From: Octopus vulgaris
Lineage: Eukaryota
Length of the DNA: 64,000 nucleotides
Assembly: GCA_951406725.2 (NCBI GenBank)
Contig: OX597818.1
Span: 81,034,001 to 81,098,000 of the forward strand
Direction of reading: 5' to 3'
Shown one piece after another: positions 175 to 61,880 of this stretch. A program made the translations under genes and the position numbers. The notes under the pieces are model-generated. The model was given only the letters and a program-made list of their open reading frames with translations. It was not told where the DNA came from and did no database searches. Numbering within the stretch: position 1 is the stretch's first letter; each line of letters opens with the position of its first letter.

Positions 175-585
175 TAATGTTAATTAATATTAATACTTAT
201 CGCCAAGCTAATATGGTAGTCCAGAAATATAGGACGAATGCTGCCATTGATTAGCTCCAAGAGGCCATCACCTCTAGCTAGGTATGTGACACATGAACCT
301 GTGTCCATTATAACCTTCGAACAGGGGAGGTCAGCCATTTCCCCTTGTTGGTCAGGCATCTGCAGATTAGTTTCAGGGTATTTGCCCTTTATCAATGCAG
401 AGCAGCCGAACCCAGCAGGCATCACTACTGACTGTCTGTTCAATGGATTATTTACCTAAATTCAGCATTCGTCCTATATTTCTCGACTGCCATATTAGCT
501 TGGCGATAACTATTAATATCCAGTGCCACTGCTGTAGTCTCCTTTAGAGAGACTTAGAAATATTAATATTTCTAATGTTAATTAA
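175..585. mobile_element. HHR-bearing retrozyme/PLE-pLTR-like element with internal inversion
   Basis: Homologous to the 57447-58432 unit; taatgttaattaa repeated at 175-187 and 573-585 (probable TSD); interrupts a MITE. Confidence 0.7.
359..401 (-). ncRNA. Minimal type-I hammerhead motif, U3-A8 core variant
   Basis: Reverse complement reads TCTGCA-TTGATAA-AGGG-caaata-CCCT-GAAAC-TA-ATC-TGCAGA. Stems I and II are perfect; stem III has one mismatch. Confidence 0.65.
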
Positions 586-3500
586 GCGTTACATTTGATG
601 GAGCAATCTGAATGCTAAGGGATGATTAAACCAGCCACATCCAGCCCAAACAGTCTGCCTGTTTTATGTTCAAACAAGTCAGATCTGGCCTCTCACACCT
701 ACCCAACAATGTCATTTAAAAAATAAACAATCATATCATCAAAATGTTGAAGCTATGAGATAAAGAATGATAAATTTAAAACAATGTGAATGAATATTAC
801 ATTTGATGAAGTTATCTGATTGCTAAAGGATTAAATATGACAAAGTATATACACAGATTTTACAAGCACGTGTGTGTGATATTGGCAGTATTTCTGTGTG
901 TGTGTCTCATATCTACATTATATGTGCGTATGCAATAGCTACACATATACATGTGAATATGTGTGTGTTTGCACAATATCTATACTATATATGTGTATGA
1001 TATCTGCAGTGTATGTTGGGTATCTATAGTATGCATATGTGCATGTGTGTGATATCTATGGTATACGTTTGTATATGTGTGTGTGTGTCATATCCTCTGT
1101 ATATGTGTGATATCTACAGTGTGTGTGTTGGATGTGTATAGTATGCATGCGTATGATGTCTACAGTAAATGTGTGTATATATCCGTCTGATATCTACAGT
1201 GTGTGTGTGTATACATATGTATATATATATTTCTTTATTGCCCACAAGGGGCTAAACATAGAGGGGACAAACAAGGACAGACAAATGGATGCAGTCGATT
1301 ACATCACCCCCCAGTGCATAATTGGTACTTATTTAATCGACCCCGAAAGGATGAAAGGCGAAGTCGACCTCGGCGGAATTTGAACTCAGAATGTAGCGGC
1401 ATGATGATGACTGCCTTGTTGTAATACACAAACACACACACACACACACGCGTGGTTTGTACACCCGTGTCTATAAAGAGATTTTCTCGCAGGTGAAAAT
1501 CACATATTATGTTTACACTGATGTATATACATTAAATATAGTATACAGATAGCTATTCTAATGAATGATTAATTTCACAAATGAATGCTATTAGATTATA
1601 ATGAATCTTATTAAATTACTGTTTTAGTCTGAGAACTTAAACTAAATTATTGTTTGCATGTAATACAGGAAGTTCTGGTCTTGCTCCAAGTAACCAAAGC
1701 AATACCTATCACTGAAGAGGTGAAATCGCACTGAAACAATGTGTTTGGTAGTCTGCTGATATCACTTGAAGCTTGGCTTAATGTGTTTTTAGACACAAAT
1801 TCTACAAAGAGACAATTTTCCTTCCATGACAACAAAATTCCATAGCATATTCCTTTCATATTTTAGTGTAGAGTAACATGTTAAAAATAAACGTACACAT
1901 TTTTTATTTTGATCCTAACTGCTTCATGTGTGCATAAATCATCATCATCATTATCAGCAGTACATCTGTTTTTCTATGCTTGCATCAATTGCATGAGTTC
2001 TTTTTGTCTGTCTGTCTTTGTTTTCTCCTCTTCCTCCTATTCCTTAAATTGTGATGTATTTCTTTTTCTCTTTACCTCCTATTTTCTCCTGCTTTTCTTT
2101 TTTATTCTCTTTTCTCCTTTCTGTTTTTCTCTCCTCAATCTATCTGTATATCTATATGTGTGTGTCTGTCTCTGTCTGTCTCTCTTTATCCCCCCTCCCC
2201 CGTCTTTACTTCTCTACTTCACAATTTTTTCTCTCCTTGTCTCCTTTCTCTCTCTCTATTTAACTTTCCTTTGTATCTTACATTTTCTCCTTATTTTCTC
2301 TCTTTCCATTTCTTTCTTTCTTTCTCCTCTCTGCCTCATCTCTCTCCCCCATTTCTCTTCTCTTTCTTTCCCCCATTTCTCTCTCCCCCCATTTTTCTCT
2401 CTCTCCCCAATTTCTCTTCTCTCTCTCCCCTCTCCCTCTTCTTCCATCTCTCTCTCTCTCTCTTTCTCTCACACCCTCCCTTTTTCTACTACCTGCATAC
2501 CACCCAAAACTCCAAGCCTGTCATCCTATTTACCCAACCTTCAGAATAAAGTCAGATAATCCCTGTCTGCTTCTCACCCCTCCCCCACCACCACTTCTGC
2601 CTTACCACAGCCTCTTCTACCTCCAACCCCTACCAGCACAACTACCACTTTCAGGGCCTTTACCCCTGACCTTACCACCCCAATCATCAAATCCCCTACC
2701 CACTAACACCAACACCCCCATCCCCCCACCATTGTGTTTGGAGAATATAGCCTTTTTCATAGTTTATTTTTTTATTCCTCACATTCATGTCTGTGCTTTC
2801 TGGAAATTGTTTTTTTAAGGACCAAGCTTGTGGAACAAATATGGTTCAGTGGATTAGTCTAGTGTATGTAGTTATAATCTGGGGCCAATTGGGGATTTGT
2901 GCATTTTTATTTTATTAAAACGTTTTGAAGGAAGCAAGGTTGTTTGACTATTTGCTATTTCCTCCTCCTCCTCATCATCATCATCCTTTCTACTATAGGC
3001 ACAAGGCCTGAAATTGCAGGATGATTGAAGTTTGGCAGTAATAATGTTAATAATAATAATAATTTCAAATTTTGGCACAAGGCCAGCAATTTTGGGAGAA
3101 GGGTGGGTGTAGCAGGTACTTATTTTATTGATCCTGAAAGGATGGAAGGCAAAGTTGACCTTGGCGGAATTTGAACTCAGAATGTAATGACAGTCGAAAT
3201 GCCTCTTGGAGTTTTGTCTGGCATGTTAATGATTCTGATAGCTTGCTACCTTAATGATGATAATAATGATGATAATAATAATAATAATAATAATATTAAT
3301 AATCTTTTCTACTATAGGCACAGGGCTTGAAATTTTTGGGGAGGGGGCTAGTCAATTACATTGACCCCAGTGGGTAACTGGTACTTGTTTCATCAACCCT
3401 GAAAGGTTAGAGCAAAGTTTGACCTCAGCGGATTTTGAACTCAGAACTTAAATTTTGATGAAATGACAAATTTTGATGAAATGACGCAAAGCATTTTGCT

Positions 3501-5366: not shown

Positions 5367-6685
5367 GTAAGTTGGTGTTATTTAATGACTTATTTAACAG
5401 CATATTTTAATGATATTGTTTAATGGTATTATTTAGTAGCATTGTTTAATGACATTACTTAATGATGTTATCAATGGTGTTATTTAATGAACTTATTTAA
5501 TGATCTTATTTAACAGCATATTTTAATGATATTGTTTAATGTTATTATTTAGCAGCATTGTTTAATGACATTACTTAATGATGTTATCAATGGTGTTATT
5601 TAATTACATTATTTAATGATGATATTTAATGCCATTGAAGATGACAAGCTGGCAGAATTGTTAGCACTCAGGACAAAATGTGGTCAAACTAAAGTGCTTG
5701 ACCTGAGCAAAAGAAAAAATAGTACAATAAGTGTAGAACAACATGTAGTAAACAAATATGAAGCAAAAAATGCGCGCTAGTGAACGAGTGCAGGGAAGAG
5801 GACTTGGAAACTTCACATCAGGAATGTTCTGAGTCCTTTCACCACTTTCCCGACTGTTGGCGAAATTTTTTTCTTCATATTTGTTTACTACACATTATTT
5901 TACACCTAGCAGACTATTTTTTTTCCCTAATTTTTATGATGGGAGGTGGATGGGGTGCGAACTTGGATAATTCATATGATCCAGTAACCCCACTTTGACA
6001 CCCAGTCACAAAAATGAAAAAAACAGTAGTGTAAAAGGTGTAAGACAACATGTAGTAAACGAATATGAAAAAAAAAATGTGCGCTGGTGAACAGGGGTGG
6101 GGCAAGGGAGAGGACATGGAAAATTCAGACCTTGACCTTTAAACTCCAGGGTTTGACCTGAGCAAAAAAAAAATAGTGTAATAGGTGTAGAACAACATGT
6201 AGTAAACGAATATGAGAAAAACAATGCGCACTGGCAAATGGGGTGGTGGTGGCGGCATGTAAAAGCACCCACTACACTCTTGGAGTGGTTGGCGTTAGGA
6301 AGGGCACCTTGCTGTAGAAACTCTGCCAGATCAAGATTGGAACCTGTACAGCCATCTGGTTTGCCAGTCCTCAGTCAAATCATCCAACCCATGCTAGCAT
6401 GGAAAGCGGACGTTAAATGATGATGATGAGGATATGACTAGTTTAACCCTTTAGCATTCAGATTACTCTGCCAAATGTAAATCTTAATTATGTTGTATAG
6501 AATAACGCATTATCTTGTAGCTTCAAAATTTCAATGATGTGATTGTTTATTTCTATAATGGCACTACGGTAGCTGTGTGACATTAGATCTGGCTATTCTG
6601 AACATAAAACGGGTGGAATTTTTAGGCTGGATAAGGTGGTGAGGTGGCAGGTTGGGTAAAATGCTAAGTGGCATTTTGTCCATTA

Positions 6686-15598: not shown

Positions 15599-16190
15599 AA
15601 CCTTTTGGCATTTCACCCTCTAGCGTTCAGATTACTTTATCAAATATAATGCTTATTTATTTACATTATTTTGAATTAATCATGCATTATTATCTTGAAG
15701 CTTTGAGATTTTGATAAAGTGACTGTTTATTTTTAAAATGTTTTAACAAGTAGAATATTTGGGCTAGATACAGACGGTTTAAATGCTAATGGATTAAACC
15801 AACCATATTCAGTTCAAATATTCCACCTGTTTTATGTTCAAACTGTCCATATCCAGCCTCTCACACCTACCCTACAATATCATTCTAAAAATAAGCAATC
15901 ACATCATTGAAATTTTACAGTTATTAGATAATTCATAAATAGTTCCAAACAATGTGAATAAATAAGAATTACATTTGGCAGAGTACTCTGAATGTTAAAG
16001 GATTAGACTGGCCATATCTAGACCAAATATTGTACCTGTTTTATGTTTAAACTGACCAGGTCAGGCCTCTCACACCTACCCTACCAATGTCAATCTAAAA
16101 ATAAACAATCACATCATTGAAATCTTAAAGGTACAAGATAGTGCATGATTAATTGAAAGAATTGTGAATAAATAGGCATTACATTCGACA
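15599..16190. mobile_element. Tandem copies of a ~210-bp TTAA/CCCTTTAGCATT-ended piggyBac-like MITE
   Basis: Diverged copies with ttaaccctttagcatt...aatgctaaagggttaa-type ends; also at about 76-835 and 6443-6635. Confidence 0.6.
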
Positions 16191-26083: not shown

Positions 26084-27802
26084 TGTACTTACATACCAAG
26101 TTTCATCAGGGATGACATCGACTTCCCTGTCCCATCTTCCCAAAACAACAGAAACAAATTCAGTTTTACTAAGTTTTGATGTGGTAAGCCTCTACACCAA
26201 TATTCCACACGATTTAGGAATAAAGGCGATTAAATACTGGTTAGAAAAACATAGAGAAGTGATTCCCAGCAGATTCACAGTGCCATTTATATTAGACACA
26301 GTCAAACTTATTCTAGAAAATAACACATTCTTCTTCAATATACTTTCTAAATCCAGATAGTTTACCTCCACATCTTGGTAGAATTGTTCTTCTAAGTATC
26401 CCATTACACGGCGATGAGCAAACGAGGAGCAAACCTCGTTCCCATCGCCGTGCAACTCTAATTTGGATGTAATTCTTTCCATTGAAGAAGAATGTGTTAT
26501 TTTCTAGAATAAGTTTGACTGTGTCTAATATAAATGGCACTGTGAATCTGCTAGGAATACTTCTCTATGTTTTTCTAACCAGTATTTAATCGCCTTTATT
26601 CCTAAATCGTGTGGAATATTGGTGTAGAGGCTTACCACATCAAAACTTAGCAAAACTGAATTTGTTTCTGTTGTTTTGGGAAGATGGGACAGGAAGTCGA
26701 TGTCATCCCTGATGAAACTTGGTATGTAAGTACATAGTGGTTTCAAAACAATGTCAATAAAATTGCTTAGACGGTGTGTAGGGCATGCTGGACCAGCTAT
26801 AATAGGTCTAAGTTTTAGGTCTTTTGGATGTAATAATTTTATGTACTCACTTTCTTGTTCTTTTACTGCCTGTTGAATGTTTTTTGATTTGTGTATTTTT
26901 GGTAAGCCGTAGAAGTTGCTGGGTTTTGGTTCAAAATTGGTGATGTAGTCTTTTTCATTATCCGTAAGTGAGTTGTGGTGTGTTGAAATCAGGTTGTTGA
27001 TCTTTTTCATGATGTGGTGGTCTATATTTGCGGGTATTTCACAATAGAAGGTTGTATCCTTCAGTTGGTCTTCAAATCCTTATAGTATTCGGTATCCATA
27101 ATAACAATTGCACCACCTTTATCTGCTTGTTTAATTATTATTGTTTGATCGTTTTGTATACGTTTACATGCAGACATCTCTGATTTGCTAACATTGGTAT
27201 TGCGTTGCACAATGTATTGGTCAAGGTAGTTACCTTTGGTGGGGTGAAATTTGATTTATACTAGGGATTCATCAATCTCATTACTTGTTTGATTGTTAGC
27301 AGCGAAGAATTCTACAGATTCGTAATTTTCGACAGAATTTTTGGATATCCTCCTTTAATTCTTGGTGGTTGGCTGTTGGTGTAGGTGTGAATTTCAGTCC
27401 TTTGACAGAAGTTGGATTTCATCATTGTCAAGATCTCTTTTTGATAAATTAATTATTTTAGGATCTATACGTTCAGTTGTTTGGGGTATGTTTCCTCTTG
27501 GATTTTTTCTTTCTCCGGTGTTTGTTATGTCCGACGTAAAAAAATGGATTTTTTTCTGGTTATGATTTATATTCCTGTTGATGTTTGCTTGATGAATTTT
27601 GCGTTTTGGTTGTGGTACTTTACTTGGTTTCGTTATGTTTTCTGTCTTGTTTTTGGTATTATGTATGCTACTTTTCAATTTCTTGTTAGCATTGTTTTTA
27701 ACCACCTGGAGAAATGATCTGGGTTTACTTAGATCTAGATCGGTTTTTTTGTCCAGTTTCTTGTGGGTAATCTCTGTTGAGGTCTTTGAAAATGATCTCC
27801 TG

Positions 27803-34325: not shown

Positions 34326-34745
34326 TTAAAGTTTTTTCAGTTATGTAAGAATGAAACGGCATACACACACGCACAAATATATATATACATATATATTTTT
34401 CTGCTCAAACATACTTATATGTACATACGTATTATATGTGTTTATAAGGGAGGATCAGTGCATTAGTTTGTATCATTATAATTATAAATATAATTAAAAC
34501 AATAATACGCAGACTTATTTATATTTACATATAAACGTGATATGTTTATTACTTTGTTATTTTAACTCTAAGTTAACTGTTTTTTTGCTGATCCTCTCAG
34601 CAAGCGAACTGTGCACTATATATATATAGTTCAACTATATATATATATATATAGTTAATCCAAACATGAAAACACTAAGAGAAAACACAACAACGCGAGG
34701 ACATGGAACAAATATAGTATTATTGGAAGGAAGGGAAGAAGGAGG

Positions 34746-34780
34746 GTTTAACGTTTCGAGCGAAGCTCTTCGTCAGAAAC
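34746..34780 (-). ncRNA. Ultra-minimal hammerhead motif in a PLE-like end fragment
   Basis: Reverse complement: GTTT-CTGACGA-A-GAGC-TTC-GCTC-GAAAC-GTT-AAAC; stem III reduced to the palindrome AACGTT. Confidence 0.55.
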
Positions 34781-34931
34781 ATAGGAGAAGAAAAGATCCA
34801 GAGAAGGGAAGACAGAGGGAAAAAATTGCCAACGGTACACATGCGGTCACATTATATATATATATATATATAGTTCACTGTACTCTTATAAATTTTATGA
34901 TATATATATATATTTCATCATCCTAACACTA

Positions 34932-53997: not shown

Positions 53998-56900
53998 AGA
54001 TACGTGCACCCTTAACTTAGTCTTAAGGGAGATTCAGTGCGACACAGTGTGTGACAAGGCTGACCCTCGGATCAAGATCGAAAGGTCGTGAGTTCGATTC
54101 TTGGCGACGCATTGCGACCTTGCGCAAGACATTTTATTTCACGTTGCTCTAGTTCACTCCGCTGGCAAAAAAAAAAAAAAAAAATTGAGTTGTACCTACA
54201 ATTCAAAAGACAGACATATCACATTCTTTGTCATACCGAATCTCCCTGAGATAAATGTTAAGGGTTCTCATGTCTGTGAAGTGCTCAGCCACTTGCACGT
54301 TAACATCGCGAACATACTATTCCCTTTGATAGGCTCAAATGGAGCCCACGATGTAACCGGCAGAGTGCCAATTTGCAACGGTTTTTCCTAAAATATTCAG
54401 CCGAGCGCTCTGGCAAGAAAGCTCTTCTATTTCTTTCAAAGTTTGCCGTCACCATCATATTAAGTCAGCCATGGCTAATTGTTTAGGTGATATTTGCATA
54501 GGCTTTAATACCTCTCAAGGGGATACCTTTACTTTTATGGAATGCCATTACTTCGAGTTTCCAGACTGAGAAAATCTGAAAGTTACTATTCAAATTGCAG
54601 CCGGGTTTTTACTGCAAAATGAAAAGAACTCTCTGGTAAGTAGCTTGCTTACGAACCACATGGTTCCGGGTTCAGTCCCACTGCGTTGCACCTTGGGCAA
54701 GTGTCTTCTACTATAGCCTCGGACTGACCAAAGCTTTGTGAGTGGATTTGGTAGATGGAAACTGAAAGAAGCTCGTCGTATATATGTATATATACATATA
54801 TATGTATGTGTGTGTGTGTGTATGTTTGTGTGTCTGTGTTTGTCCCCCCAACATCGCTTGACAACCGATGCTGGTGTGTTTACGTCCCCGTAACTTAGCG
54901 GTTCGGCAAAAGAGACAGATAGAATAAGTACTAGGCTTACAAAGAATAAGTCCTGGGGTCGATTTGCTCGACTAAAGGTAGCGTTCCAGCATGGCCACAG
55001 TCAAATGACTGACACAAGTAAAAGGGAGTCCTTAGTAAAATAGCACAAAAGCAACACATTCTAATAAAGGGTAAATCATTAACTATACGAAGATTCAATT
55101 ACTACCTGTCTAACTTTATTAATACCACACCAATAGGTGTGCAAAATATGGGATGTTTTCTGCCGCAACCTATAGGATCACGGCATGAGCCCACAAAACA
55201 CTCGTCAGTTGCATATTGCTACCGCTACTTTCAGCAGTGAAGTGAGCCACACAATTCCGTTTGTGTCTGTTTACAGGAAAAAGGATCGAATCATTCGACC
55301 ATGTTCACCGCTGCAGTGCTGCAACGCAGACAAAACACGAACTACCGACCTTAAAACTTGTCTCACTTACCCAGTCGAATCGGCCATTCGCAGTGTCTAT
55401 AGTTTAGGCCAAGCATGAGAAAACCTTTCTCGAAAAGCGGTTCGAATGCGACATGGCTCATTATCAAGTGGGCTGGGCTGCACAACTATAAAGAAATTAA
55501 AGTAAATTTTCGTTTGGTGTGCTATTCAGAAAGTCTTGCGGGTTGCAGTTTGCCTATGTCTGGTTTAGGTACATAGGAAAACTACCACTTGCAAAGAACC
55601 ATGCATTTGCTAATTCCTTCGGGTGCCTATGTAACTACAAACATATATAAACACCCTTTTTACTCTCCTATCCTTAACCCAGAGGAGCATTCAGGATGTG
55701 ACTTGAGTGAAAGAGATGGGAGAGGGCCGCAACCATCATTCAGCGGGTACTAGTTTTTGCTTTAGTAGAATGCAGCAATTTGAAATGAAGTGCTTTTCTC
55801 AAAGACACAGCACATTGCTCGGTCCGGAAATCGAGCCCACGACTTCATGATAGAGTGACCAACAGCTTAATCTCTGGGCCATGCACCGACACTGATAAAA
55901 TATACTTGTTGACTTCAACAGGAACGATGGTTGAATGGTTAAAGGGAAGTAATAAGTAATTCAAACTTACCTCCCTTGAATGTTATTGTAATATGTGAAA
56001 ATATTTACATTCATATAAATACATAAAAACACGTATGTATGTATACTTACATAAAAACGATAAACTTGGCCTTTTCAAGCCTAGCCAGGCTCATGGGCCC
56101 GGTTTCCGGGCTTCTGTGGCGTATGTGTTCCCCACCAGCTTGGACGGGACGCCAATCCATCGCAGCGTAGCTCAAGAAACAAAAGTGAGAGAAAGTTGTG
56201 GCGAAAGAGTACAACAGGGGTCGCCACCAACCCCTGCCGGAGCGTCGTGGAGCTTTCAGGTGTTTTCACTCGATAAACACACACAACGCTCGGTCTGGGA
56301 ATCGGAACCGCGATCCTCCGACCGCGAGTCCGCTGCCCTAACCACTGAGCCATTGCGCCTCCACATACTTACATACATAGATACGTAATATTTGCTTAAA
56401 TTCAAGTATTCACATACGTACACACCTATAAACGTTCATTCAAACATTTGCATACGCATAAATTAACGTACATAAATACACCCATACACATATATACATA
56501 TATACACAAGTATACGCATACATTAGGGTGGCGAGTTGGTAGAAATGTTAGCACGCCGGGCGAAATGCGTAGCTGTATTTCGTCTGCCGTTACGTTCTGA
56601 GTTCAAATTCCGCCGAGGTCGACTTTGCCTTTCATCCTTTCGGGGTCGATAAATTAGGTGCCAGTTACGCACTGGGGTCAATATAATCGACGTAATCCGT
56701 TTGTCTGTCCTTGTTTCTCCCCTCTATGTTTAGCCCCTTGTGGATAGTAAATAAAAAGGTATTTCGTCTGCCGTTACGTTCTGAGTTCAAATTCCGCCGA
56801 GGTCGACTTTGCCTTTCATCCTTTCAGGGTCGATAAATTAGGTACCAGTTACGCACTAGGGTCGATATAATCGACGTAATTCGTTTGTCTGTCCTTGTTT

Positions 56901-57377
56901 CTCCCCTCTATGTTTAGCCCCCTGTGGGCAATAAAGAACCCCAACTATTTCCTCCTCAGTCCTCACTATAATTTTTTTTGCAACTTACTGCTAGTTGAAA
57001 AAAACCCACCAAAACTCAACTTTATTTTTAATATTTTATCACAATTATTTAATACAAAAGAATCTATTGGTAACTCTTTTAAGTACCGAGTACAAAAAAA
57101 GTACATTATTGACTAAGGAAAAAAGAGAAGCACTTTAATGAGAACCTTGTGTCTGGCGACTACAGCACCAGACTCCCACCACATTTTTCTCAGGCCCCTT
57201 TGGTGGGGCATATGCTCTACGTTGAGAATCTCCGACATATATATATATATATATACGCACTAACACATATATACACTTGCAAGATTACATATGTACATGC
57301 ATACATACCTACGTACGTACAAACATTCACACATACATTCATACATACATACATACATACATACATACATACATACA

Positions 57378-57450
<73 letters not shown>

Positions 57451-57676
57451 GAAATATTAAAATTACTAAGTCTCTCTAAAGGAGATTACGACAGCGTTAC
57501 TGGAAATTAATAGTTATCGCCATACTAATATGGCAGTCTTATATTTATAAGACTAAAGCTGTCGCTGATTAGCTCCATGAGGCCATCGCCTTAAGCTAGC
57601 TATTTGACACACAAACTGCGTCCATTATAAACCTTCGAACAAGGAAGGTCAGCCACTTCATACTGCCAGTCAGACA

Positions 57677-57720
57677 GCTACAGACGACGTTTCAGGGTTG
57701 TTGCCCCTTATCAATGCAGC
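57677..57720 (-). ncRNA. Minimal type-I hammerhead, U3-A8 core variant
   Basis: Reverse complement is identical to the motif at 58222-58265. Confidence 0.72.
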
Positions 57721-58221
57721 GTAGTTAGATTTGCAGGTGTCGCTACCGATCGTCTCAGTTCGAAGGCTTTATTTACCTAGTTTCAGTGGAATACATCCAC
57801 TTGTTTTCAATAATAGAAATATTAAAATTACTAAGTCTCTCTAAAGGAGATTACGACAGCGTTACTGGAAATTAATAGTTATCGCCATACTAATATGGCA
57901 GTCTTATAAATATAAGACTAAAGCTGTCGCTCCCTTGTTCGAAGGTTTATAATGGACGCAGTTTGTGTGTCAAATAGCTAGCTTAAGGCGATGGCCTCAT
58001 GGAGCTAATCAGCGACAGCTTTAGTCTTATATTTATAAGACTGCCATATTAGTATGGCGATAACTATTAATTTCCAGTAACGCTGTCGTAATCTCCTTTA
58101 GAGAGACTTAGTAATTTTAATATTTCTATTATTGAAAACAAGTGGATGTATTCCACTGAAACTAGGTAAATAAAGCCTTCGAACTGGATAGATCGGTAGC
58201 GACACCTGCCAGTCTGACTAC

Positions 58222-58265
58222 GCTGCATTGATAAGGGGCAACAACCCTGAAACGTCGTCTGTAGC
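58222..58265 (+). ncRNA. Minimal type-I hammerhead, U3-A8 core variant
   Basis: GCTGCA-TTGATAA-GGGG-caacaa-CCCT-GAAAC-GTC-GTC-TGTAGC. Confidence 0.72.
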
Positions 58266-58434
58266 TGTCTGACTGGTAGGATGAAGCGGCTGACCTCCCT
58301 TGTTCGAAGGTTTATAATGGACGCAGTTTATGTGTCAAATAGCTAGCTTAAGGCGATGGCCTCATGGAGCTAACCAGCGACAGCTTTAGTCTTATATTTA
58401 TAAGACTGCCATATTAGTATGGCGATAACTATTA

Positions 58435-58553
<119 letters not shown>

Positions 58554-59136
58554 AGGCGCAATGGCCCAGTGGTTAGGGCAGCGGACTCGCGGTCGGAGGA
58601 TCGCGGTTTCGATTCCCAGATCGGGCGTTGTGAGTATTTATTGAGCGAAAACACCTAAAGCTCCACGAGGCTCCGGCAAGGGGTGGTGGCGAACCCTGCT
58701 GTACTCTTTCGCCACAACTTTCTCTCACTCTTTCTTCCGTTGGCCTGCTCGCTTAGCCAGCGGGTGGCGTCATTTGAAGGCTAAAACAATGCGAAGCGCA
58801 TTGTGACCAGCGATGTGTAGCAACATCTGATAGCCTGGTCGGTCACGGTGATATATATATATATACTCAATTTTTTTGGATTAATCGATATGCGGGAATT
58901 CTATTTCAGATAATACAAAAATAACCTAATGAATACATCTTACAGTAAACTCATGGTATTAGTTTGCACATCATGAAATAACGCTTAAAGGATATAACGT
59001 AAATTACCAGCTATATAATATACTTCATTAATTATATCATGTTTTTGTTAATACTCATATTTATTAAATATGAAGGAATCACACGTGTTTCAGTATTGGA
59101 AGATTACAATAAATATACATATACACAACTGCATAC

Positions 59137-60384: not shown

Positions 60385-61880
60385 TGAGAATTTACCAAAA
60401 ATCAAAAGATGAAGACGGGTGTGTAAACAACAAACATATATTAGTTTAACGCTCGGGAAGTGAGAAAATCTTTTACATTTCGAGCCTACGACAGAAATAA
60501 ACAGGGAGAGAAAATATAAAAAAAGGGTTAGTGGCTACCGATTTATCAGTGCAAATGCCGGACAGAGGGGTCACACAGGAGAGCTAGGAAGAAGGGCAGA
60601 TAATAAAGTAGTGGTGATCCAAAAACGAAGGTGCGCGTCGGGGTCTATGTGAATGTGGAAGGGGGCTGGTGACCTTGACGTGTGCGTGTGTGTATGTGTA
60701 GGTGTGTGGATGATGGTGTGGGTGCTGGGAAATGGGCAGTGCTAGTGTGTGCGCTGGTGTGGGTGCTGGGAAATGGTCAGTGTTAGTGTGTGCAGGGTTG
60801 TGATGTGGTGTGGTATGGTGGTGTGTGGTGTAGTGGTGTGTGGTGTGGTGTGATGGTGTGGGGGTGTGTGATGTGGTGTGGTGTGGGGGTGTGGGGGAGG
60901 CGAGAATGGGTGAAGCAAGGGTGGGATGTATGGGATGGGGTGGGGTAGGACGTCTAGGGATGTTGTGGTTGGAATGTGTAGGGTAGAGTAACTTGTGTCA
61001 ATGAAAGGAGAGGGTGGAAGGAGGCGGGTAGGACTGAAGACAGGAAGTAGGTGTCAGAGCAAGAGAGGAGAGGTGGGTGGGAAGAAGTAGGTGTGAGAGA
61101 AAGAGAGGAGAGAGGGGGAGGGTTAGATGAAGAGGGGGAAAAGTTGATCCCATATAGCGCAAAGAAGCAAAGAGAGAAGATTAATCCTTGTTCACGGAGA
61201 TGACGGGAGTCCGAATGGCCCCTGTCAAGGACAATCCGAACACAGACAGGTGTTGTAAAGAGTGACCGGCAGAGCGGAAATGGCACGATCGCGAATGTTG
61301 TTGCCGAGTCTGGTGTCTCGGAAGTGTTCCACGAACTGGTCAACCAAGCGGCGTCCCGTCTGACCGATGTATAGAGGACAGAGAGAGGAGATGCAGGAGA
61401 TGACATTGCTAGAAGTGCAGGTGAAGGAGTCAGTGATATGATAGGATCGATGATGGGTGCCTGTGAGGAGGGTGGTGTTGGAGAGGTAAGGGCAAGTACG
61501 GCAGCGTGGGCGGGAGCAGGGGAACGAGCCGGGTTGGGAAGCAGTAGACCAAGAGGTCTCGTAGGTTGTGGGCTCGTTTGAAGGAGGGGAGGGGTCGTTA
61601 GGGAATATGCGCGAAGTGGAGGGGTCGAACTGGAGTCGCCGGAAGGCTCGGAGAATGGTGCGTTGGAGAGGTAGGGTGGTGGGGTTGTAGGTGAGTGGAA
61701 ACGAGATACGGGTGATGGCGGGGCGGGTGCAGGGAGAGAGAGCAGATGTACGGTCCACGGAACGTACTCTGACAAGGGCGGTGTGGATAGTGGTGATGGG
61801 ATATCCACGTAGGATGAAGTGGTGAGTGACCATGAGTTGAGACTGAGTCTCAATGTCATGGTCTTTACGCCACGACAACA
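60385..61880 (-). mobile_element. Penelope-like element 3' part with GIY-YIG endonuclease remnant and pLTR
   Basis: FILRGYP, PLTYNP, CSRPRCRTC, FTCTSSNVI..I...C..YIGQTGRRL..QFVEH; eroded HHR remnant near 60472-60495. Confidence 0.88.

Follow-up and report, generated by a model that had tools for sequence, protein, structure and literature searches.

Retrozymes are structured repeats of 150–450 bp and are proposed users of the enzymes of Penelope-like elements (PLEs; PMC7229834; bioRxiv 10.64898/2026.07.22.740005). In the cycle described for them, a tandem transcript undergoes cleavage as a dimer, the host ligates the product, and reverse transcription takes place on the circle (PMC7229834). 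The 2026 preprint argues that retrozymes derive from PLEs, and eight of the nine Xenopus retrozyme dimers predicted in it failed to cleave (bioRxiv 10.64898/2026.07.22.740005). The prior case for the enzyme that mobilises animal retrozymes consists of shared hammerheads, co-occurrence, and homology to pseudo-LTRs (pLTRs).

In descriptions of PLE insertions, one arm is inverted and 5'-truncated, one end carries a tail of 30–40 bp, and the target site is duplicated (PMC3846280, PMC8557442). The PLE protein of Anolis Poseidon cuts and extends both target strands and prefers AT-rich DNA, and the tail is the stretch bounded by its two internal RT start sites (PMC11167929). In this PLE, the one that has been reconstituted, insertion proceeds independently of hammerhead cleavage, and the cut site does not occur among the read ends (PMC11167929). 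Neptune and Naiad PLEs are described as biased towards microsatellites (PMC8557442). In Octopus vulgaris, PLEs make up 6.83% of the genome and comprise 190 families, 31 of which were recently active (PMC13282606). Hammerheads with a U3-A8 pair occur in several natural ribozymes and are active in vitro according to earlier work cited there (PMC3088659). The same pair is found in the Cercyon PLE, with ~1,300 hits in the Schistosoma mansoni genome (PMC4209133). For cephalopods, 235 matches to Rfam hammerheads are tabulated for the giant squid (PMC6962438). In the accessible literature, no cephalopod retrozyme was found, and supplements and repeat libraries beyond this scope could hold the family; likewise, no PLE tail or inversion signature was found described for any retrozyme.

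The DNA considered here is a 64,000-nt stretch of the Octopus vulgaris genome (contig OX597818.1, positions 81,034,001–81,098,000), hereafter the window, which contains a palindromic hammerhead element at 57445–58434. The best explanation for this element is an ORF-less hammerhead unit mobilised by PLE proteins, with the palindrome as the scar of its integration, and a probability of about 0.6 is attached to this reading.

Layout and ends of the two insertions

The element is built from a unit of 365 bp, and two opposite-facing arms fill it entirely. Arm A (57445–57931, minus strand) has 487 nt, or 1.33 units, and its tail-bearing outer end (57445–57447) abuts (TA)n. Arm B (57930–58434, plus strand) has 505 nt, or 1.38 units, and its tail-less outer end (58432–58434) abuts (TATC)n. 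The arms meet at an inversion junction at 57930–57931, a 2-nt microhomology common to both. One complete unit lies at 57930–58294 on the plus strand; it is non-coding and has 41.6% GC. Direct repeats spaced by 365 nt are 98% identical in arm A (57445–57566 and 57810–57931) and 99% identical in arm B (57930–58069 and 58295–58434). Between the arms, the inverted repeat (57508–57931 and 58011–58434) extends over 424 nt with a spacer of 79 nt, and is 96% complementary with 15 differences. These measurements agree with the preliminary description of a unit repeated about 1.3 times and then about 1.4 times inverted, with a near-perfect fold-back of about 420 bp. Eleven of the 15 differences are inside a 112-nt hammerhead domain at 58186–58297 (binomial P 0.0002), and four of the differences are one small indel patch. 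Arms A and B may have been copied from two distinct template RNAs, or the remainder may have been homogenised by gene conversion.

The surroundings of the element contain further repeats at 58553–58860 and 56525–56940, which are presumably SINE-like, and include an inverted match of 56255–56384 to 58530–58659 and a 184-nt tandem pair. A BAIAP2/IRSp53-like gene with at least 12 exons over 3755–48124 on the plus strand matches an Octopus bimaculoides protein, one 55-aa exon with 91% identity, as fits an octopod host, and the focal locus is located ~9 kb beyond its last coding exon.

BLAST of the element on the window reveals a second, 80%-identical insertion at 188–572. Its long arm is on the minus strand, from about 466 to 188, and holds a U3-A8 hammerhead with its core at -395, the only hammerhead of this insertion. 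Its short arm (463–572, plus strand) is tail-bearing, and the two arms are joined at a 4-nt microhomology at 463–466. AT-rich 13-bp duplications flank it at 175–187 and 573–585 (plus strand), and their length becomes 11 bp if two bases are assigned to the element end. Among 5000 shuffles, a length of 13 was reached by one and a length of 11 by eight. The flanks are contiguous in four paralogous host repeats (near 700–835, 15850–16020, 15600–15760, and 6430–6580). These repeats act as empty sites, and 188–572 is a true insertion with a target duplication. The second insertion is upstream of the BAIAP2-like exon encoding residue 73, and is probably intronic.

Both loci end in the same manner. 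One arm stops at unit position 58431–58435 (equivalent to 58066–58070), and the other arm continues ~60 nt further, to 58126–58132 in the next unit. The segment between these two recurrent end positions (58070–58132, plus strand) is referred to as the tail. Loose contig ends in other sequencing runs are found, among those listed, at 58128, 58132, and 58431, and continue into AT-rich DNA. The layout common to both loci is thus two 3'-outward arms joined at a microhomology of 2 or 4 nt, with a tail at one end only and an inverted 5'-truncated arm. The second insertion additionally has its 13-bp target duplication with empty paralogous sites; at the focal locus, no target duplication is discernible between the (TA)n and (TATC)n microsatellite flanks. 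Because inverted arms and two fixed, unequal ends are present at both loci, the palindrome is most likely a scar of PLE integration, and not a feature of the element as it was first taken to be. PLE-type integration of the unit is very highly probable. PLE machinery had previously been named as the likely mobiliser, and the tail, the inverted arms, the microhomology, and the target duplication now give this proposal new structural evidence. A partner of the Neptune type, to which the microsatellite flanks might point, is a guess. The tail-bearing arm starts at a nearly equal unit position (~58011–58016) at both loci, in these two cases only; this position lies at the base of a stem formed with the tail, and is possibly a stop or switch site of the RT.

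Hammerhead motif and whole-unit fold

Each arm contains one type I hammerhead with the core TTGATAA (UUGAUAA in RNA), as noted in the preliminary description. The arm B motif occupies 58206–58280 on the plus strand with its core at 58228–58234, and the residue map puts C17 at 58259, which coincides with the cut after GUC expected earlier; the cut itself is a prediction. The arm A motif occupies 57662–57736 on the minus strand, with its core from 57714 and a predicted cut after 57683. The core residues are U3 U4 G5 A6 U7 A8 A9, followed by G10.1-U11.1, G12 A13 A14 A15.1, and U16.1 C17. The core features of a type I hammerhead, namely a Watson-Crick 3-8 pair, GAAA, and NUH, are all present, with U3-A8, G5, A6, A9, G12, A13, A14, A15.1-U16.1, and C17. 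In arm B, helix I has 6 bp and continues past an internal loop into an extension, helix II has 4 bp closed by a 6-nt loop with no additional base after A9, and helix III has 2 bp within a palindrome at 58252–58258. The arm A hammerhead has the same core and the same helices II and III, and its distal helix I is weakened by three differences.

The motif had been called minimal, which does not hold under the published definition of minimal hammerheads. With helix II of 4 bp, helix I of 6 bp plus an extension, and the extra base absent, it is a canonical metazoan hammerhead and not the PLE minimal type (PMC4209133). The U3-A8 pair was correctly described as a compensatory core, and it is common to both 80%-identical copies, including the one at 188–572. 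Its supposed novelty falls away, since the pair has already been published, both in natural hammerheads (PMC3088659) and in S. mansoni PLEs (PMC4209133); both this core and the inverted opposite-strand layout are already known.

A relaxed hammerhead descriptor (stem I of at least 5 bp) finds five matches in the window, three of which belong to the family of the 365-bp unit, and 20 shuffled windows give a mean of 0.05 matches. Rfam reports no hammerhead family on the element, neither at the gathering score nor at E≤10, which bears out the expectation that standard searches overlook this family. An Rfam match is not a defining property for variant hammerhead cores. A high-copy hammerhead family that is invisible to Rfam and to CUGANGA descriptors means that cephalopod counts may be low. 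A weak hammerhead-like descriptor match at 1703–1752 (plus strand) has a C3-G8 core, scores 14 bits with E 0.09 under model R1, and may be due to chance. A 19-base hammerhead pattern matched 101 metagenome loci and one viral locus, none of the 102 extended into helix II and GAAA, and none was similar beyond ~22 nt; these matches are rejected as relatives and regarded as chance. The pattern scan of prokaryote genomes gave no match.

Duplex formation between two hammerhead copies through a palindromic helix III is a known dimer route. Here the palindrome allows a 6-bp duplex between two copies at -4.7 kcal/mol. Counting against activity, the predicted fold of the monomer is an inactive rod at -34.3 kcal/mol, compared with -23.0 kcal/mol for the three-way fold. 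The weak points of the hammerheads are the G10.1-U11.1 pair and the broken helix III of the second copy. The ribozyme is probably active, at least as a dimer.

The helices are conserved beyond the core. Across the three hammerheads of the window, proximal helix I and helix II are 100% paired, and four of the 23 hammerhead pairs are changed on both sides, a level equally reached by 7 of 500 shuffles; three sequences are few, and the structure was derived from one of them. At the level of the unit, the second copy and the focal locus (two loci, 80% identical across 337 aligned unit positions) were compared over 102 pairs. Six pairs show double-compensatory changes where 1.8 would be expected (P 0.006), and 14 are broken where the expectation is 22.8 (P 0.003). 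Folded as a circle, the 365-nt unit reaches -129 kcal/mol with 63% of its bases paired, and a z of -8.2 relative to 60 shuffles. The hammerhead fold and the structure of the unit are under selection. The three helices are supported by covariation, all of it from two loci, with helix III weak and broken in the second copy.

Family, template, and competing explanations

Twenty of the 24 listed sequencing runs contain the stretch or part of it, and these cover 11 studies and four organism labels. Four runs with three labels were analysed: X1 and X8 (label A), X18 (B), and X9 (D). Matching contigs number 2678, 67, 15, and 718 in X1, X8, X18, and X9, respectively, and these contig counts are not copy numbers. 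The identities spread from below 90% to 99%, and every band is filled apart from the highest one of X18. N7 (58232) varies in the 40 variant rows listed out of 70, whose U3 and A8 are invariant. In both X8 and X18, the variants 58217 A>G and 58268 T>C agree in depth, which is expected of a compensatory pair. Helix III is palindromic in three variants, namely the window form and two others that are read as palindromic from loose ends and one-base gaps.

In all four runs, overlapping contigs with 9–24 other letters chain the tail to the hammerhead with no intervening ORF (32 of 3543 pieces listed), and no contig among these 32 spans the whole 365-nt unit. The joint from 58434 to 58070 that closes the unit is present in all four runs; it is rejected as proof of tandem arrays, since a coding PLE would also lead from the first end into the tail. 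The share that continues into unlike sequence amounts to 0 for X1, 0.02 for X9, 0.09 for X8, and 0.34 for X18. Three pieces (records 18 and 19 of X8 and a loose end of X18) have 174–817 unlike letters upstream of the hammerhead, which might be coding. The contigs of X8 and X18 are not accepted as evidence of transcription, because the RNA origin of both runs is only guessed. One X1 contig switches strand exactly at 58259, and strand-switch joints occur in independent contigs; as a single-contig hint, the former could reflect a template beginning at the cut site.

On the hammerhead strand of the unit, stop-to-stop frames reach at most 31 aa, and the longest antisense one has 91 aa. One-base indels are common among the family contigs, and the antisense frame is rejected as coding because abundant variants put such indels inside it. 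The sense strand thus conforms to the earlier statement that the unit is non-coding. The family is apparently large, diversified, and ORF-less, as judged from its diverged contigs in all four runs, in line with the retrozyme-like non-coding family first proposed. There is a high probability that the ORF-less unit is the form of the family.

Two PLE relics are located in the window. The first (26357–27489, minus strand, with an inverted piece at 26084–26339) and the second (61246–61521, minus strand) match RT-GIY-YIG proteins with a cysteine linker, and on these protein matches we read both as Neptune-like. Their DNA has only short, weak matches to the unit, the best of them an AT-rich one of 28 nt with E 0.01, and no hammerhead of the family lies near either relic in the window. 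The suggestion that they are partners of the unit is not borne out, and they show that PLEs exist in this genome and nothing more. No RT and GIY-YIG ORF between pLTRs is present in or beside either insertion locus, and a coding PLE partner that shares the ends of the unit was not found in this analysis. The relic at 26084–27489, next to an assembly gap, is frameshifted and contains an internal piece in inverted orientation, which is the same inverted-truncation pattern in a coding PLE. A short element at 34670–34850 (minus strand) lies between (TA)n runs and carries a separate minimal-type hammerhead with its core at 34776. This core has the canonical C3-G8 pair, one additional base follows A9, and helix III is a 4-nt palindrome. 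The element resembles a solo 3' end of a PLE from an unrelated family, and no PLE protein match occurs around it within 34.2–36.7 kb.

The predicted cut site is 173 and ~238 nt upstream of the two unit ends, and all three long arms (the two focal arms and one of the second copy) read through it. Since the long arms pass the cut site and both focal ones are longer than a unit, their template cannot have been a cleaved linear monomer. The template is likely a circle or an uncut head-to-tail multimer, and template jumping could also account for such arms. In the proposed mechanism, a PLE-like protein with RT and GIY-YIG would copy the protein-less 365-nt element in trans. The endonuclease would make a staggered cut of both strands at an AT-rich or microsatellite target, and each 3' end would serve as a primer for the RT, which would start inside the unit at either of two fixed sites separated by ~60 nt. 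The resulting pair of cDNAs would converge and be joined via 2–4 nt of microhomology, giving the palindrome. On tandem transcripts from master loci elsewhere, the hammerhead would work as a dimer to release monomers, which the host may ligate into circles on which the RT would then run. A retrozyme cycle is favoured in view of the conservation of both the ribozyme and the fold of the entire unit, and the chance that a circular RNA is produced is put at about even.

Two hammerheads in one orientation are seen at neither locus, with one per strand at the focal locus and one in total at the second. Since each strand has one hammerhead, the focal locus could not release a monomer, and the earlier caveat that it is unable to give a monomer circle by itself stands. 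Neither locus has the two or more consecutive units with complete hammerheads that characterise an active retrozyme. The two loci are therefore classified as dispersed PLE-type insertions of a retrozyme-like unit, and not as active retrozymes.

The alternative that survives best is a non-autonomous mini-PLE moving as linear RNA, in which the hammerhead is a rarely cutting, inherited part of a pLTR and no circle is formed. Arms longer than one unit would then come from uncut multimers or from template jumps of the RT. The unbroken passage of the long arms across the cut site, the monomer fold predicted to be inactive, and the lack of a same-strand hammerhead pair at either locus agree with such an element, as does the finding that hammerhead activity is dispensable for PLE insertion in vitro (PMC11167929). 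However, the compensatory changes and the three palindromic variants of helix III imply selection for a dimer-competent ribozyme. Moreover, the complete unit is highly paired when folded as a circle, and the strand switch of the X1 contig is a further hint from one contig. The linear mini-PLE is considered unlikely.

It is quite improbable that the unit is the pLTR and tail of an unsampled coding PLE, with the two loci as heavily 5'-truncated inverted copies. Truncated PLEs do leave inverted short arms, a tail, and opposite-strand hammerhead pairs 100–700 bp apart (PMC4209133, PMC3846280), and the long unlike upstream pieces in X8 and X18, together with 214 further loose ends beyond those listed, would suit this origin. 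On the other hand, the tail returns to the hammerhead within ~100 nt in both focal arms and in the diverged contigs of four runs, and no sense frame of the unit exceeds 31 aa. The hammerhead architecture is of the canonical retrozyme type and not PLE minimal, and among the ends listed no high-depth loose end resembles an ORF junction. The long inverted repeat and the AT-rich target duplication would also fit a fold-back or MITE-type DNA transposon, or else the palindrome might be an assembly artefact, but both can practically be dismissed, since the termini at both loci are different unit positions a tail apart rather than matching inverted repeats, the two loci are inverted at different points, the covariation is of the RNA type (G-U tolerant), the arms differ at 15 of 424 positions, and strand-switch joints recur in independent contigs.

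Comparison with known systems

Among putatively non-autonomous PLEs, the Chlamys elements such as MRC1 resemble the octopus unit in being protein-less and in having a PLE-type insertion structure (PMC8557442). They are green algal, and most are without canonical hammerheads. At the 3' end, these Chlamys units resemble known autonomous partners (PMC8557442), whereas the octopus unit has no known partner.

The Cercyon PLE of S. mansoni (PMC4209133) and natural U3-A8 hammerheads (PMC3088659) have a core covariation identical to that of the octopus motif. In addition, the minimal hammerheads of S. mansoni also occur as opposite-strand pairs 100–700 bp apart (PMC4209133). In contrast, the Cercyon motifs have a helix II of 7–8 bp, a helix I of 4–5 bp, and an extra base after A9, while the octopus motif has 4 bp, 6 bp plus an extension, and no such base; the minimal definition also includes little or no helix III (PMC4209133).

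The insertions and pLTRs of EN+ PLEs, such as Adineta Pen2a (PMC3846280) and Anolis Poseidon PAc (PMC11167929; see also PMC8557442), are similar in their inverted truncated arm and their tail at one end. An AT-rich or microsatellite target, a target duplication, a microhomology junction, and a hammerhead upstream of the RT start region are likewise common to both. Unlike these elements, the octopus unit has no ORF, and its tail runs back to the hammerhead region. Its ~60-nt tail exceeds the 30–40 nt published for PLEs, and its duplication has 11–13 bp compared with 8–10 bp.

The closest described systems are the metazoan non-LTR retrozymes, in particular the 350–390-bp repeats of Mytilus galloprovincialis (PMC7229834; 2026 bioRxiv preprint). 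The octopus unit shares with them its size within the 150–450-bp range, a GC content below 50%, the non-coding and highly self-paired sequence, the canonical type I hammerhead, the weak palindromic helix III, and a target duplication longer than 4 bp. The tail, inversion, and target duplication of a PLE on an apparently ORF-less hammerhead unit allow the RT start sites to be predicted exactly and, if the reading is true, the unit offers a ready in vitro substrate with those predicted sites. With a probability somewhat below even, it may represent an octopod retrozyme family fixed for U3-A8 and missed by Rfam, whose insertions of more than one unit would be direct evidence that PLE proteins copy ORF-less hammerhead circles. 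In the accessible descriptions, three features distinguish it from the metazoan retrozymes: a U3-A8 core in both diverged copies; inverted insertions of 1.3+1.4 and 0.3+0.8 units at the two loci in place of tandem arrays; and the tail signature of a PLE.
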